Positions 35,538 to 45,080 of a DNA stretch of 64,000 nt are shown here, in pieces. The notes under the pieces were generated by a model. That model made no database searches and was not told where the DNA came from. It saw only the letters and a list, made by a program, of their open reading frames with translations. The stretch is from Candidatus Bathyarchaeia archaeon. GTDB lineage: Archaea > Thermoproteota > Bathyarchaeia > Bathyarchaeales > Bathycorpusculaceae. How positions within the stretch are numbered: position 1 is the first letter of the stretch; each line of letters starts with the position of its first letter. Position numbers and translations under genes: made by a program. The DNA lies in the NCBI GenBank assembly GCA_038882955.1, contig JAVZNC010000006.1:16442-80441 (forward strand), written 5' to 3'.

Positions 35538-35624
35538 AACGACTTTTGTTCAAGAAGCCTTTTTACACGAACGTGGCAAACAACCTTAAATAAATCTGCA
35601 ATAATTTTCACAACGGTGATATGC

Positions 35625-36623
35625 GTGCCGTGCATGGTTATTGCTGGAGCTTTCTGGGGAGACGAGGGTAAGGGCAAAATAATCTCCTATTTGGCTTTGA
35701 AGGATAAACTGGATGTTTGTGTTAGAACTGGTTCTGTCAATGCTGCGCACACGGTTTGGTTTGAGGGGAAACGTTACGCCTTGCACATGGTTCCAGCAGC
35801 GTTTGTATATGAGAAATGCCGCCTACTGATAGGTGCAGGCTCAAATGTTCACGTTGCACAATTTCTCAAGGAAGTTGAGGAGACAAACGTCAAAAACAGG
35901 ATAGGCGTGGATGCGCAAGCCTCCATAATTGAGGAGAAACATTCGACGCAGGACAAGACAAGCGCGCACCTAAAGGGAATCGGGACAACTGGTTGGGGTG
36001 TAGGTCCAGCAATAGAAGAACGTGTACGCAGAACAGCAAAGCTCGCAAAGGACATACCCGAACTAAAGCCATACATAACAGACGCCGCAGAAGAAGCAAA
36101 CAACGCAATAGACGCAAACAAAAAGGTTTTGCTTGAAGGGACACAGGGCTTGATGCTTTCACTTTTCCATGGAACATACCCCTACGTTACTGGAAGAGAC
36201 ACAAGCGCTGCAGCAATATGCTCCGAAGCGGGCGTCGGACCAACAAGAGTCAACGAAGTCCTAATAGTTTTCAAGTCTTTCATGACCCGTGTTGGAGCTG
36301 GTCCGCTTCCAGGAGAACTTACGAAAGAGGAAGCCATAAAACGGGGATGGTTTGAAACTGCCGCTGGAACTGGACGCGACAGGCGTTCAGCCCCCTTTAA
36401 TTTTGAGATTGCCAAGAAAGCCGTAAAAATTAACGGCGCAACGCAAGCAGCACTGACAAAGCTTGACAGTGTATACCCGCAATGTAAGGGCGCAAGAAGC
36501 TTTGATGAACTTCCAAGCAATGCGAAGGAGTTTTTGAGGGAAATCGAGCGTCAAGTTGGCATTCCAGTTGTGCTTATCGGCACTGGACCAGAAGCCCTAG
36601 ACATAATTGACCGAAGAAAATGA
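35625..36623 (+). CDS. purA: Adenylosuccinate synthetase (short archaeal type)
   Basis: WGDEGKGKI, NAAHTV, IGTTGWGVGP, EGTQG, YPYVT, TRVGAGP, TKLD. Confidence 0.95.
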   Translation: MPCMVIAGAFWGDEGKGKIISYLALKDKLDVCVRTGSVNAAHTVWFEGKRYALHMVPAAFVYEKCRLLIGAGSNVHVAQFLKEVEETNVKNRIGVDAQASIIEEKHSTQDKTSAHLKGIGTTGWGVGPAIEERVRRTAKLAKDIPELKPYITDAAEEANNAIDANKKVLLEGTQGLMLSLFHGTYPYVTGRDTSAAAICSEAGVGPTRVNEVLIVFKSFMTRVGAGPLPGELTKEEAIKRGWFETAAGTGRDRRSAPFNFEIAKKAVKINGATQAALTKLDSVYPQCKGARSFDELPSNAKEFLREIERQVGIPVVLIGTGPEALDIIDRRK

Positions 36624-39958: not shown

Positions 39959-41110
39959 TTGGGCGATGAATTTGCAAGGCATTATGTTCGGTCTTCCACA
40001 TCTTTTATCATGGCGGTTTTTCTGCTTGGGCTTATCGTTGGAAGCGTGGCAACCTATTACCTCGTTTCCACGCAGATTAACAGTTTGAAAAACGATGTTG
40101 CAAATCTTCGAAGCCAAATTTCAGCGATACTTGGAAACCAGACAGTCATTTACGAGTACATTAATATAACGCAGGATGGCGTAGACCTTTCAGAACTATA
40201 CGCGAGAGTGAAAGATTCCGTCGTTATGATTCGCGGAACATTCGCAAACGGCACAACCGTCCAAGGTTCAGGTTTTGTTTATAACTTCTCTGGTTTAATG
40301 GTTGTCATAACGAATTACCATGTTGTGCATGACACAGTGAGTAGAAGCGTAACCTTTTCTAGTGGAAATGGATACGCCGCAATAATAAATGGAACAGACC
40401 CCTACGCGGATTTAGCAGTGCTAATATTGCCCGATGCTCCAGAAAGCGAATTCAAACCGCTGGAAATCGTAAGTTCATCAACATTAAAGGTTGGCGAATC
40501 AGTCATAGCAATAGGCAACCCATACGGCCTCGTAGGTTCGATGACGACTGGCGTTGTAAGCGCCCTAAACAGGACAATACAGGAAACTTACACTGGAGGG
40601 TTCAGCATAGCGGGCATAATACAGACAAGCGCACCCATAAACCCTGGAAACTCTGGTGGTCCGCTTCTGAACTTTAACGGCAAGGTCGTTGGAATAACAA
40701 CAGCCATAATTCAGGACTCGCAGGGTCTAGGCTTCGCCATACCCTCCAACACCATACTTAGGGAAATAGCCTCCCTGGTATGGAACGGCTCATATGAGGG
40801 GCACTCCTACTTGGGCTTGCAGTTGAGGGATATGAGTTATGAACTGGCACAGCAAATAGGCGCAAGCGTCACATACGGTGTCCGAGTAGAAGGTTTCTTG
40901 GACCCAAGTCCAGCGAGGGATGCTGACATCCAGATGGGCGATATAATAATCGCCCTAAACGGCACGCGAATTATAAGCGTGGACGATTTGGCATCCTACC
41001 TTGAGGAAAACACCTTGCCTGGAGAAACACTGTCGGTAACAGTTGTCAGGGGAAGCGAACAGAAGAATTTGCCGGTGGTTTTGGGAAGAAGAGCGCCACC
41101 ACAGCCATAA
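39959..41110 (+). CDS. HtrA/DegP-like membrane-anchored serine protease with PDZ domain
   Basis: N-terminal TM, GSGF, TNYHVV, DLAVL, INPGNSGGPL, C-terminal PDZ. Confidence 0.93.
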   Translation: MGDEFARHYVRSSTSFIMAVFLLGLIVGSVATYYLVSTQINSLKNDVANLRSQISAILGNQTVIYEYINITQDGVDLSELYARVKDSVVMIRGTFANGTTVQGSGFVYNFSGLMVVITNYHVVHDTVSRSVTFSSGNGYAAIINGTDPYADLAVLILPDAPESEFKPLEIVSSSTLKVGESVIAIGNPYGLVGSMTTGVVSALNRTIQETYTGGFSIAGIIQTSAPINPGNSGGPLLNFNGKVVGITTAIIQDSQGLGFAIPSNTILREIASLVWNGSYEGHSYLGLQLRDMSYELAQQIGASVTYGVRVEGFLDPSPARDADIQMGDIIIALNGTRIISVDDLASYLEENTLPGETLSVTVVRGSEQKNLPVVLGRRAPPQP

Positions 41111-41198
41111 TAGTGTTGTATGTTGCTAATGAGCAGCTACAATTCAAGTAACTGCAAATATTAGCATACCATCCATTGTCAATTTTCTAACATTGTGA

Positions 41199-41273
41199 TG
41201 GGGCTGCCCGGATTTGAACCGGGGTCTAGAGCGCCCGAGGCTCCAAGCCTAGACCAAGCTAGCCGACAGCCCC
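41199..41273 (-). tRNA. tRNA-Pro(CGG), no intron
   Basis: GGGGCTG acceptor, GGAGC-CT-CGG-GC-GCTCT anticodon arm, CCCGG-TTCAAAT-CCGGG T arm, A73; CCA not encoded. Confidence 0.93.
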
Positions 41274-41348
41274 TCTTTTTGGAAAGCATTTTAAATAGAG
41301 GGAGTCTTAACCTTTAAACCCTTACTCTGCAACTTTGCGTTTGAGGGG

Positions 41349-43562
41349 TTGATTGGAGTGTCTGTTGGTCAGCGTGTGCGTGGAGTTAAGGTGCTCAAGG
41401 CTGTTTCTTCGCCTGTCCGACTGCAGATTTTAAACTTACTTTTTGATAAGGGTTCGCTTTCTTATACTGAGCTTATGAGCGCGCTTAAGATGAGCCCAAG
41501 CAGAGACGCGGGCAGATTTGCTTATCACTTGAAGTTTTTGCTTAAGGCGGATTTGGTTGAGGCTGATGTTGAATCAAAGAAATATTGCCTAACAGATTTG
41601 GGGAAAATGGTTCTTGACGTCGCGGAAAGAATTGAGAAGAGGGCAATAAAACCAAGAGGATTAGTTGTCCGCACTTCACGTTTAGCCCTAGAAGAGTTTG
41701 ACGCAAACAAAATTGCAAACTCGCTTGTGAAGGAGGCGAAGATGCCAGACGACTTAGCTCAAAAGATTGCAAAAGAAGCTGAAAAACGTTTGCTAAAGTC
41801 AAAAACGAAGTATCTAACGGCGCCGTTGGTTAGGGAATTTGTCAACGCAATCCTAATAGAAAAGGGTCTAGAAGAGTATCGCCATAGGCTTACACGGTTG
41901 GGATTGCCAGTCTACGACGTAACAAACCTAATAGAGTCAAAAAGCAAGGGTTCACAGAAAACGGCTTCAATACATGAAAGTGCAGGCGCGGTGGTTTTTG
42001 AGGAGTATATGCTTTTACATGTTTTTCCAAGGGACATTGCAGATGCGCACTTGTCTGGGGCGCTGCACATTAAAAGTTTAAGCTCATGGACTTTAAAGCC
42101 AAGCGAAGTCATGCATGATTTAAGATTCTTCTTTCAAAACGGCGTAAACCTTGAAAAAATAGACGCGCATAGATTTTCTTATTCACCACCAAAAAATCTG
42201 AATGAAGCCTTATCCCTAACGCTTAACGTAATTCAAAATTCAGCCAAGGAAACAGCCGAAAGCCAAACAATCGATTACTTCAACGTTTTCCTAGCACCAT
42301 TTGCGACGGGCATGAACCCGCAAGATGTTAAGGAAGCGCTTAGACTTTTCGTTTTAAATGCAAGTCAGGTGGAAAATTTTTCTTTAGGCTTGGAACTTAC
42401 GATTCCAGAATTTGTGAAGGAGAAGCCAGCGGTTAGCCCAAATGGAAAACAAGCGGGTAAGTATGGCGACTTTGCAGTAGAAAGTCAACTTTTGGCTTCG
42501 CTTTTAATGGAAGTATTCGCCGAAGAGAGCGCCCAAAAACCACTGCTTAACCCAAAATTGATAGTGAAGCTGCGTTCAGAAACATTTGCAAACGAGAAAG
42601 CACGCGAATTGCTATTTAAGGCTCACAAGCTCGCATTGGAGCGCAGCCTACCCTACTTCGCAAACAACTTCGCAAAAAACCTAGAAGCCTCCGTGTTCTC
42701 GCATTCTGGTTTTAGATTGAACGTGGACATGAAGGGCGACTGGGAAATTGACACGTTGCGCACTGGATGCCTAGGATATGTCAACGTGAACATGCCGCGC
42801 ATAGTAAACGAGTCTGAAGGAGACAAGCGAAAATTCTTGGAAATTCTTAAAGAAAGGCTTGAGATGGCAGCAAGAGCTCTTGAAATTAAGGATAAGGCTT
42901 TAAGACAGAGGTGCAGCGGCTTGCTGCCTTTCCTAATGCAGAACATTGATGGAGACCATTATTTTAGGCTGGAAGGATGCTCGCGCATAATAAACATGGT
43001 TGGACTGAAAGAGGCAGCGGAAGCATTCTGTAAAAGCCCGTTCACAGACGAAAAGACTTTAGGATTCGCCGCAGAAGTTTTACAAGCTGCAGCAGATTAC
43101 ATGGCTAAAATTGGAAGACGCAAAAGACGCCTTTTTACTGCGCTGCTTCCAGATTTTGAGGCTTCAGAGCGCCTCGTGCAGTTGGACATTGAAAGATATG
43201 GCATCGCGAGGGTGCGATTTTCTGGAGCTAGGGAAAATCCATTCTATTCCACAGTAAGTCGAATGAGCCTTGATGGCGAAAAGTTCGTTGAAGCGTCTAT
43301 GAGGTTCAAAAGTGTTTCTGGCAAACTTAATGGTGGAAACATAATCGTAATAGAAATTGAAGATTTCAAGGGAGGCGCCGAAGAGTTAATGGCATTAACC
43401 AGAGATATAGTAGAAAAGAAAATCCATGAATTCTTTACGTACAACCGCAAACTAACCTATTGTGCGCGCTGTAAGAAAAGCTGGTATGGAATTAGGCACA
43501 AATGCCCATCATGTGAAACCACAGGCACATTAACGGTCTTTGACAGATTCGTACAAGTCTAG
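41349..43562 (+). CDS. ArsR-type winged-HTH + ATP-cone + degenerate class III ribonucleotide reductase (NrdD-like) fusion, probably catalytically inactive
   Basis: N-terminal SPVRLQIL...FAYHLKFL...YCLTDLG; ATP-cone VRTS...FDANKI...LTAPLVRE; NrdD-like IADAHLSGALHI, HDLRFF, LRTG.L..VNVNMPRI; Zn ribbon CARC/CPSC; no R.xGY motif. Confidence 0.85.
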   Translation: MIGVSVGQRVRGVKVLKAVSSPVRLQILNLLFDKGSLSYTELMSALKMSPSRDAGRFAYHLKFLLKADLVEADVESKKYCLTDLGKMVLDVAERIEKRAIKPRGLVVRTSRLALEEFDANKIANSLVKEAKMPDDLAQKIAKEAEKRLLKSKTKYLTAPLVREFVNAILIEKGLEEYRHRLTRLGLPVYDVTNLIESKSKGSQKTASIHESAGAVVFEEYMLLHVFPRDIADAHLSGALHIKSLSSWTLKPSEVMHDLRFFFQNGVNLEKIDAHRFSYSPPKNLNEALSLTLNVIQNSAKETAESQTIDYFNVFLAPFATGMNPQDVKEALRLFVLNASQVENFSLGLELTIPEFVKEKPAVSPNGKQAGKYGDFAVESQLLASLLMEVFAEESAQKPLLNPKLIVKLRSETFANEKARELLFKAHKLALERSLPYFANNFAKNLEASVFSHSGFRLNVDMKGDWEIDTLRTGCLGYVNVNMPRIVNESEGDKRKFLEILKERLEMAARALEIKDKALRQRCSGLLPFLMQNIDGDHYFRLEGCSRIINMVGLKEAAEAFCKSPFTDEKTLGFAAEVLQAAADYMAKIGRRKRRLFTALLPDFEASERLVQLDIERYGIARVRFSGARENPFYSTVSRMSLDGEKFVEASMRFKSVSGKLNGGNIIVIEIEDFKGGAEELMALTRDIVEKKIHEFFTYNRKLTYCARCKKSWYGIRHKCPSCETTGTLTVFDRFVQV

Positions 43563-43565
43563 AGA

Positions 43566-44516
<951 letters not shown>

Positions 44517-44615: not shown

Positions 44616-45080
44616 ATGAGTGAAACTGTGTTGCATGTTTCAAAAATTAAGGATGGAACAGTCATAGACCATATTACTGGCGGACATGCGTTGGATGTTG
44701 TCAAGATTTTGGGTATAACTGGGCGTGAAAAGCGTGTAATAACCATAGCGATTAATGTTCCTAGTAAGCGTTTCAAGGTTAAGGACATTGTGAAGGTTGA
44801 GGGCAGAGCGTTAAATCCGCAGGAAGTGCATAAGATTGCTTTGGTTGCTCCGCACGCGACGATAAACATAATACGTGATTATAATGTTGTTGAGAAGCAG
44901 CGTGTTCAGCTTCCAAAAGTAATCGAAAACATTATTAAATGTGCGAACCCCGCGTGTATAAGCAACAGCAACGAGCCTGTTCAAGCGAAGTTTTATGTTG
45001 AGAGTGAGGAGCCTTTGCTTTTGAAGTGTCATTATTGTGGTTATATTATGGAGAAGAAGGATGTTTTGGCGCAGTTTTAG
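44616..45080 (+). CDS. pyrI: Aspartate carbamoyltransferase regulatory subunit
   Basis: IKDGTVIDHI, KDIVKVEG, CANPACISN, CHYCG. Confidence 0.97.
   Translation: MSETVLHVSKIKDGTVIDHITGGHALDVVKILGITGREKRVITIAINVPSKRFKVKDIVKVEGRALNPQEVHKIALVAPHATINIIRDYNVVEKQRVQLPKVIENIIKCANPACISNSNEPVQAKFYVESEEPLLLKCHYCGYIMEKKDVLAQF

Follow-up and report, generated by a model that had tools for sequence, protein, structure and literature searches.

Gene and domain organization

The gene described here occupies positions 41349..43562 on the plus strand of a 64,000-nucleotide (nt) stretch of DNA from a Candidatus Bathyarchaeia archaeon (assembly GCA_038882955.1, contig JAVZNC010000006.1), the whole stretch being referred to below as the window. 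It encodes what sequence comparison indicates to be a catalytically dead form of the class III ribonucleotide reductase (RNR) NrdD, headed by a winged helix-turn-helix (wHTH) and an ATP-cone. The open reading frame (ORF) is intact and comprises 737 amino acids (aa) when counted from TTG, the form to which all residue numbers of this protein refer; translation more likely begins with the GTG at 41358, which yields a protein of 734 aa that matches both the recorded protein form and the Atlas entry.

The domain order read from the letters alone in a first-pass annotation (wHTH, ATP-cone, NrdD barrel, Zn ribbon) was borne out by Pfam and by a structure model. Specifically, the wHTH at residues 15–95 (41391..41633) was matched by DUF7347 (PF24038; residues 15–90, 31.2 bits against a cut-off of 27.6) and HTH_5 (PF01022; residues 21–71, 32.6 bits against 22). 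It is followed by an ATP-cone of the “VRTS” type at residues 105–180 (41661..41888; PF03477 at residues 107–177, 32.4 bits against 25.8), a post-cone linker, LTRLGLPVYDV, recognized by its conservation at residues 181–191 (41889..41921), and a NrdD-like ten-stranded barrel without catalytic residues at residues 207–700 (41967..43448), delimited from Pfam and structure matches. The NRDD profile (PF13597) matched residues 207–733 with its positions 11–538 of 562 (210.7 bits), leaving unmatched the last 24 positions (539–562), which hold the glycyl-radical loop. Behind the barrel lie a Zn ribbon (C705-x2-C708 ... C719-x2-C722; 43461..43514), the four cysteines of which are invariant across 57 relatives, and a vestige of the glycyl-radical loop, FDRFVQV with the stop codon (43539..43562). 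The NCBIfam equivalog TIGR02487 scored 230.6 bits, under its cut-off of 326.35, and the NrdR model TIGR00244 was absent from the NCBIfam matches of the protein.

Loss of catalytic residues and predicted fold

Residues were mapped on the intact NrdD of the same genome (P0122, on contig C1), which aligns through the motifs concerned with the NrdDs of T. maritima and P. copri and shares 24% identity with the dead protein over 675 aa (BLASTP, E 4e-37). In this alignment PYCVGW of the intact enzyme faces KPSEVMH, placing Glu253 (codon at 42105–42107) at the second (βA) cysteine, and SMCCRL faces SHSGFRL, placing Phe455 of the finger loop SGFR (S453–R456; 42705–42716) at the thiyl cysteine, which the accessible text of 10.1101/2022.04.23.489257 gives as the third residue of MGCR/MCCR. 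At the C-terminus YSRVVGYL faces FDRFVQV and the stop codon, placing Gln736, two residues ahead of the stop, at the radical glycine. A profile of 57 family members aligned to solved NrdDs set “G-l-r” against GCR and “s-a-k-y” against ivGY. The same three positions had been singled out in the first-pass annotation (SGFR in place of (M/S)GCR, KPSEVMHD at the N-terminal Cys position, and no R.xGY loop in FDRFVQV), where the protein was called a pseudoenzyme. These readings stood up to alignment with the intact paralog, in which the radical Gly and Cys were not retained by the dead protein.

The losses extend beyond the radical residues. When the residues named in PMC11226230 (accessible text) were mapped, the NxN flap, described there as among the most conserved NrdD motifs, and the TPAE substrate motif were both missing from the dead protein, and the β6 Asn was replaced by Thr469. 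By alignment to the intact NrdD, all residues of the radical chemistry are thus shown to be lost and the protein to be catalytically dead.

Structure prediction, which had been proposed alongside the initial reading, was carried out with AlphaFold2 on a 57-row alignment. The full-length model had a mean predicted local distance difference test (pLDDT) score of 91.8 and a predicted template modeling (pTM) score of 0.82. Class III RNRs took all of ranks 1–36 in a Foldseek search and all of the 21 best entries in VIA-align (Z 29.6–34.0), the next VIA-align tier at Z of about 20–21 being formed by class I RNRs and pyruvate formate-lyase-type enzymes. The model superimposed on 8p2s_B with a root-mean-square deviation (rmsd) of 2.7 Å over 510 residues and on T4 1h78 with an rmsd of 2.5 Å over 462 residues, model residue 737 aligning with T4 NrdD residue 581. 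Alignments to cone-bearing structures began at model residue 103–107, and the cone therefore belongs to the structural match. The modeled fold is accordingly that of a complete NrdD with an ATP-cone.

DNA-binding head, ATP-cone and linker

The N-terminal 100 residues of the model form three helices, a β-hairpin and a further helix (H22–34, H39–45, H50–66, E70–73, E78–81 and H83–99), an arrangement that fits a wHTH. The recognition helix probably lies around DAGRFAYHL (F57–L61), where G55, F57, Y59 and H60 are invariant or almost so in relatives, and its “HL..L”/“YHLK” motif lines up with two ArsR-like proteins of solved structure, 1y0u and 4k2e. Among solved sequences, the closest to the N-terminal part were the putative ArsR 1y0u (E 0.0028) and HlyU, both weak matches. 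The N-terminal 95 residues exceed the cut-offs of both PF01022, the family of ArsR/SmtB regulators, and PF24038. In contrast to ArsR/SmtB regulators, which are stand-alone dimers of about 100–120 aa and in many cases metal sensors, the domain here heads a 737-aa protein, and the curated metalloregulator model NF033788 scored 34.8 bits, under its cut-off of 55.

Conservation, expressed as the mean top-residue frequency per segment, was highest in the linker (residues 181–195; 0.77) and next highest in the ATP-cone (0.70); the HTH (0.55) came third and the barrel (0.42) last. The nucleotide contacts of the P. copri NrdD (PcNrdD) cone are K7, R8, Y83, R87 and R91 according to the accessible text of PMC11226230; in the dead protein Tyr177, Arg178 and Arg183 are kept, and the Lys-Arg positions are taken by Thr109-Ser110. 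The same cone and linker (“VRTS ... LTAPLIRE ... TRLGxPVYDV”) also occur in catalytically intact archaeal NrdDs, and the cone type of the dead family was therefore passed down from its parent enzymes. In those intact enzymes the NxN flap, through which the cone of P. copri NrdD acts on the active site (PMC11226230, accessible text), stands directly after the linker, and in the dead protein it is missing. Judged from the sequences, what the dead family has lost is the flap linking the cone to the active site, not its cone type.

These observations bear on the idea, put forward in the first-pass annotation, that the protein reads (deoxy)ribonucleoside triphosphate ((d)NTP) pools through the allosteric sites of an RNR. 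One part of it finds support in the ATP-cone, which with its linker is the best-conserved part of the protein; the other part fails on the loss of the NxN flap, TPAE and the β6 Asn. We infer that the sensor would be the cone together with the linker rather than the lost substrate site, and that a ligand would be bound there.

Distribution and phylogeny of the family

A search of cluster representatives returned 1747 proteins at E≤1e-3, of which 347 reached E≤1e-30. Residues were compared in 104 of the best 150 representatives, namely those of 560–820 aa, after 46 fragments and much longer forms had been excluded. By Pfam, 79 of these 104 carry an HTH, either DUF7347 or another one, and these HTH counts rest on Pfam, not on the regular-expression labels used for the tree described below, which missed seven HTH-bearing proteins. 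Across the relatives, the HTH fusion goes together with loss of the catalytic Gly and Cys: the xCR finger motif, and with it the finger-loop Cys, was kept in 0/79 HTH-bearing representatives and the βA Cys likewise in 0/79. An RxxGY string was found in 4/79, in no case together with the finger motif (0/79), NxN in 3/79 and [ST]PAE in one, and 64 of the 79 carried two CxxC motifs within their last 120 aa. Of the 25 representatives without an HTH, six are intact enzymes; the others are either entries cut at the N-terminus or belong to a second kind of dead NrdD, which has two ATP-cones.

A FastTree phylogeny of 112 rows, computed from whole-length columns and unrooted, put all 13 intact NrdDs (13/13) together with 15 dead forms lacking an HTH in a single clade supported at 99%; outside this clade all rows were HTH-bearing except five HTH-less ones, two of which were N-terminally cut. 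The tree is compatible with a single origin of the HTH-bearing family, not proof of it. Deeper members retain a longer, Gly-less copy of the radical domain, e.g. YSRSLAKYLPLRWW, with a tail such as YSRSLAKYLPL, and the window's clade ends right behind the Zn ribbon. Members of the family share 28–88% identity over their full length.

Within the class Bathyarchaeia the N-terminal 204 aa of the dead NrdD were matched in 108 of 151 genomes, and in 70 of the 94 high-quality genomes. The window's own family gave a match in 15/15 genomes in addition to that of the window, with 70–80% identity over these 204 aa across the family, and one other family gave none (0/27). Further scans, made with alignments of remoter members, extended the gene's range to Nitrososphaeria (80/80 kept loci), to Asgard archaea (Promethearchaeota, Odin-, Baldr-, Jord- and Freyarchaeota, and Atabeyarchaeum) and to Methanomethylicota, Culexmicrobium and Brockarchaeota. 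Atlas clusters, taken as leads only, agree with this distribution. Sequence comparison thus shows a deep archaeal family with a conserved wHTH–cone–NrdD layout.

Several observations on family members may be recorded here. The second kind of dead NrdD, without HTH and with two ATP-cones (P0191, P0192, P0195, P0220, P0241, P0245, P0248, P0250 and others), scores 280–340 bits with NRDD, has no finger-loop Cys or Gly motif and nests among the intact NrdDs. One Bathyarchaeia sub-clade of the HTH family (L091, L092 and L094; P0148) has a C-terminal R-x-x-G-Y-like string, e.g. RRPEGYV, and its finger-loop Cys is gone. One genome of the class (G085) has two full-length HTH-bearing copies, on contigs C11 and C13. 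A related locus filed as bacterial Krumholzibacteriaceae (L068) carries genes that match Bathyarchaeia and is probably a binning error. An intein suspected in one relative (L083) was rejected, the extra length being the next gene.

Gene neighborhood

The dead-NrdD gene converges, with a gap of 3 nt, on pyrB (43566–44513, minus strand), from which pyrI (44616–45080, plus strand) diverges, and purA lies at 35616–36623. Pfam identified all three, in agreement with the first description of the gene as abutting pyrB with purA nearby. The spacer from which pyrB and pyrI diverge is short and has conserved TATA-like boxes, TAAATAAC by pyrB and TTAAAATCTTTTAT before pyrI; this divergent arrangement recurs in Bathyarchaeia, in Nitrososphaeria and in Asgard records.

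In the related genomes, the gene is repeatedly found beside a working RNR. In 13 of 80 Bathyarchaeia loci the dead gene is followed directly, on the same strand, by an intact nrdD, a glutaredoxin-like gene lying between the two in seven of these 13; the order dead gene–glutaredoxin–nrdD was checked with Pfam in Ca. Bathyarchaeum tardum. A further 15 tandem cases were picked by a second cone match, and in all of them (15/15) the downstream gene encodes SQCCR-type finger loops and SRITGYY. In Nitrososphaeria the neighbor is an RNR of class I/II type (class II-type), which adjoins the gene in 72 of 80 loci and lies downstream and co-directional in 66; its domains are Ribonuc_red_lgN, lgC and TSCPD, the members having been grouped by BLASTP and one of them examined with Pfam. 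Four Nitrososphaeria genomes have the dead gene as their sole NRDD match, and the family therefore persists without any class III enzyme.

The association with pyrB is similarly widespread. A convergent pyrB follows the gene in 50 of the 63 Bathyarchaeia loci with enough downstream DNA, stands behind the intervening RNR gene in 19 of 80 Nitrososphaeria loci, and, in a diverse set of 55 archaeal loci with Baldr-, Odin- and Atabeyarchaeal records among them, follows the gene in 23. The persistence of this gene order across phyla suggests that the gene is functionally linked to pyrimidine synthesis.

Working RNR and NrdR in the same genome

On contig C1 of the genome, which comprises 31 contigs and 1.54 Mb, an intact nrdD stands between nrdR and nrdG in a single nrdR–nrdD–nrdG cluster (L001 701–3961). 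An intact RNR, for which the first-pass annotation had proposed a check, is thus encoded elsewhere. The remark that no nrdG lies near the dead-NrdD gene was correct: of the 10 places brought up by a genome-wide Fer4_12 search, none is on the window's contig, and nrdG adjoins the intact nrdD on contig C1. The nrdR of this cluster is the sole match in the genome to TIGR00244, over the cut-off. Among the 151 Bathyarchaeia genomes NrdR was found in 20, comprising all 16 of the window's family and 4 of 27 in one other family; the bacterial-type nrdR–nrdD–nrdG cluster has the appearance of a lineage-specific acquisition. NrdR binds 16-bp boxes that occur in pairs at nrd promoters. In the nine of 16 nrdR upstream regions that could be anchored, paired palindromic boxes (aCaCTAnnnnTAGtGt; judged by eye) stand about 31 nt apart just past the TATA box, a placement typical of NrdR boxes. 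No such boxes were found in a search near the dead-NrdD gene.

In the window's lineage the slot for an RNR gene between the dead gene and pyrB is empty. As read from gene content and order, the adjacent RNR gene is lost in this lineage and the RNR operon, elsewhere in the genome, is under a bacterial-type NrdR. The dead NrdD is nevertheless kept across the family despite NrdR and the empty slot, and must therefore do something that NrdR does not.

The gene after nrdG (L001 3987–4580) encodes a protein whose C-terminal part resembles, by eye, RNA polymerase subunit H (Rpo5), with an extra N-terminal part of about 120 aa.

Promoter and candidate operators

A conserved promoter block, GTCTTAACCTTTAAACCCTTAC (41304..41325, plus strand), includes the TATA-like TTTAAAC at 41313–41319, about 40 nt ahead of the GTG start. 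The TTTAAAC block is present and strongly conserved upstream of the Bathyarchaeia orthologs, and a weight matrix built from 44 orthologous blocks scored the gene's own site at 28 bits and the next best site of the genome at 19.2 bits. The block would act as a promoter or operator. The matrix and word scans gave no second site in the 1.54-Mb genome, and a comparison by eye of the dead-gene promoter with the pyrB–pyrI spacer found no shared motif.

A candidate operator was found in Nitrososphaeria. The 120 nt preceding the gene contain the pentamer TTGAC/GTCAA at 9.7 per kb, and the spacer ahead of the RNR gene contains it at 10.2 per kb, against a background of 2.2 per kb in whole Nitrososphaeria loci, these loci being related to one another and the counts not independent. 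The pentamer is the top non-TATA 5-mer in both upstream sets, and TTTGAC is the top 6-mer (11-fold). TTGAC stands two bases past the TATA box in 26 of 78 Nitrososphaeria promoters, and its copies recur at a spacing of 32 nt upstream of the gene, and at spacings of 64–68 and 133–135 nt upstream of the class II RNR gene. Such phased arrays make TTGAC/GTCAA a candidate operator in this group. TTGAC was present in only one of nine Nitrososphaeria pyrB–pyrI spacers, which gives no support for control of pyrBI by this motif. In Bathyarchaeia TTGAC is not enriched and no operator was found.

Three other candidates were tried and rejected. Inverted repeats in 41100–41370 are short and not conserved; TAGGTA/TACCTA is 9-fold enriched near the start site in some lineages and absent in the window; and a 13-mer repeat considered as a second site lies inside a long ORF, probably by chance.

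Interpretation and alternatives

The account to which we incline is that a catalytically dead paralog of the class III RNR has been rebuilt as a nucleotide-sensing, DNA-binding regulator of nucleotide supply. The dead family clearly descends, by sequence, from a class III NrdD enzyme. The solved NrdDs (T4 1h78, T. maritima 4coi, P. copri 8p23 and S. thermophilus 9d3x) have the fold in common with it from the cone to the Zn ribbon, whereas the dead protein is truncated at the Gly loop, has no adjacent activase, falls under the equivalog cut-off and has gained an HTH. In such a regulator the protein would dimerize through the NrdD-type interface; the ATP-cone and the invariant linker would bind ATP or dATP, changing the oligomeric state or the geometry of the HTH; and the HTH would bind promoters near the TATA box, setting RNR-gene transcription and possibly that of pyrBI and the gene itself. 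DNA binding, ligand and targets are all predictions. In the window's lineage, where the adjacent RNR has been lost and the RNR operon is under NrdR, the protein would probably act on its own gene and/or on pyrBI or other nucleotide genes.

Most bacteria and some archaea have NrdR as their RNR-specific repressor. In both NrdR and the dead NrdD an ATP-cone is joined to a DNA-binding module, and the genes of both often adjoin RNR genes. NrdR differs in being about 150 aa long, in using an N-terminal Zn ribbon as DNA reader and in having no RNR barrel, whereas the dead NrdD has a wHTH, a dead NrdD body of 530 aa and a C-terminal Zn ribbon of the NrdD type. In NrdR, nucleotide-dependent oligomerization controls promoter binding, as described in the accessible text of PMC9110341 and PMC12176259, and by analogy a similar control likely offers a working model for the dead NrdD. 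The protein had initially been described as an archaeal functional analog of NrdR. This holds in so far as the gene sits beside working RNR genes in relatives, but in the present genome a true NrdR and its boxes coexist with it, and the dead NrdD is therefore not a simple stand-in for NrdR here. Their coexistence makes a division of labor between the two regulators directly testable.

A number of observations weigh against a nucleotide-sensing regulator of this kind. Thr109-Ser110 occupy the Lys-Arg positions of the cones that have been studied; the cone, searched alone against the sequences of solved structures, gave no significant match; and in two-cone enzymes the “VRTS” type is that of the inner cone, the inner cone of another RNR being reported, in the accessible text of PMC9669993, not to bind ligands. 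The barrel may be a mere scaffold because its substrate-site motifs are lost. As to targets, pyrB is convergent and shares no promoter with the dead-NrdD gene, the RNR operon of the genome has its own NrdR and NrdR-box-like pairs, and the scans for a second promoter site in the genome and for an operator in Bathyarchaeia were negative, as described above. The locus counts, moreover, come from related genomes and are not independent.

Some of these points would be met if the protein were a transcription factor whose cone binds another ligand or none, sensing being done, for example, through the Zn ribbon or a pocket of the barrel. The replacement of Lys-Arg by Thr-Ser, flanked by Arg108 and Arg111, the failure of the isolated cone to find a solved relative and the invariance of the Zn-ribbon cysteines all go in this direction. 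We regard it as unlikely, as the cone exceeds the Pfam cut-off in the query and in most relatives, Tyr177, Arg178, Arg183, Glu115, Phe117 and Ile122 are conserved, and intact enzymes, in which a regulatory role is usual, have the same type of cone. The protein could also act on other proteins, forming hetero-oligomers with a working RNR or with aspartate transcarbamoylase (ATCase) and using its winged helix for protein contacts. NrdD enzymes are dimeric and the dead copy retains the whole fold; it is often co-transcribed with a working nrdD, with overlapping or 4-nt-spaced ORFs in some loci; and some partner RNRs are without a cone of their own (that of one Bathyarchaeia locus, L075, and the class II RNR). 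Yet the RNRs that the family adjoins, of class II and of class III, are unrelated in quaternary type, many tandem partners do carry their own cone, and the protein persists in the window's lineage with no adjacent RNR. The recognition-helix motif, in addition, is invariant over phyla, as expected for the reading of DNA, and a role through protein partners seems to us quite improbable.

Two further explanations concern the barrel and the gene as a whole. A barrel kept at full length under purifying selection, with conserved Asn481-x-Pro483-Arg484, ADAHLSG and GG(H/N) motifs, might suggest an enzyme that has turned to a new, non-radical chemistry on a nucleotide-like substrate. Against this, none of the Gly, the two Cys, the β6 Asn, the NxN flap or TPAE survives, the barrel is less conserved than any other part of the protein and shows no new invariant polar cluster, and the HTH fusion is family-wide, which makes a surviving enzyme very improbable. 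That the gene is a functionless, decaying remnant of a duplicated nrdD would account for the loss of all catalytic residues and of the C-terminal domain. It is already contradicted by the conservation data and is scarcely credible: the ORF is intact here and in relatives, the gene is present in 108 of the 151 genomes of the class, identity is 28–88% over the full length, and the cone is more conserved than in many enzymes.

Taking the favored reading, that of a nucleotide-sensing DNA-binding regulator, a stage further, one may speculate, with doubt as to its truth, that the family is an ancient switch from before the TACK–Asgard split, born by duplication of nrdD and coupling the production of dNTPs to de novo pyrimidine synthesis. 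Its cone and dimer body would read the adenine-nucleotide/dNTP state, and it would control whichever class of RNR the host has (II or III) together with pyrB–pyrI. In the present lineage a horizontally acquired NrdR would have taken over the RNR operon, freeing the dead reductase for pyrBI or other targets. If true, the window's lineage is a natural experiment in the replacement of a regulator.

Enzyme scaffolds that supply ligand sensing to a DNA-binding domain are known from BirA, PutA and NadR, which have kept their catalytic activity; the dead NrdD differs from them as a pseudoenzyme built on a radical enzyme. We know of no RNR-derived transcription regulator, and the literature searches brought up none; if the proposed role is true, the dead NrdD would be the first instance of an RNR catalytic subunit put to new use as a pseudoenzyme transcription factor. 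The transcriptional control of RNR in most archaea is, to our knowledge, not known, and the family provides a concrete candidate for an RNR regulator across Thermoproteota and Asgard archaea. Literature searches, with papers' supplements outside their scope, returned no paper on an HTH–ATP-cone–NrdD fusion or on DUF7347. In the accessible main texts of PMC9669993 and 10.1101/2022.04.23.489257 the term “DNA-binding” does not occur, nor do “HTH” and “transcription” in that of PMC9669993. Databases name such genes “anaerobic ribonucleoside-triphosphate reductase”, and aerobic ammonia oxidizers and others are therefore wrongly credited with a class III RNR.

Other features upstream of the gene

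A tRNA-Pro(CGG) gene (41199–41273, minus strand) lies between a gene for an HtrA-like protease and the dead-NrdD gene, from which it diverges. The same tRNA is found upstream in many orthologous loci, and an AT-rich box at about 41286–41300 is probably its promoter.

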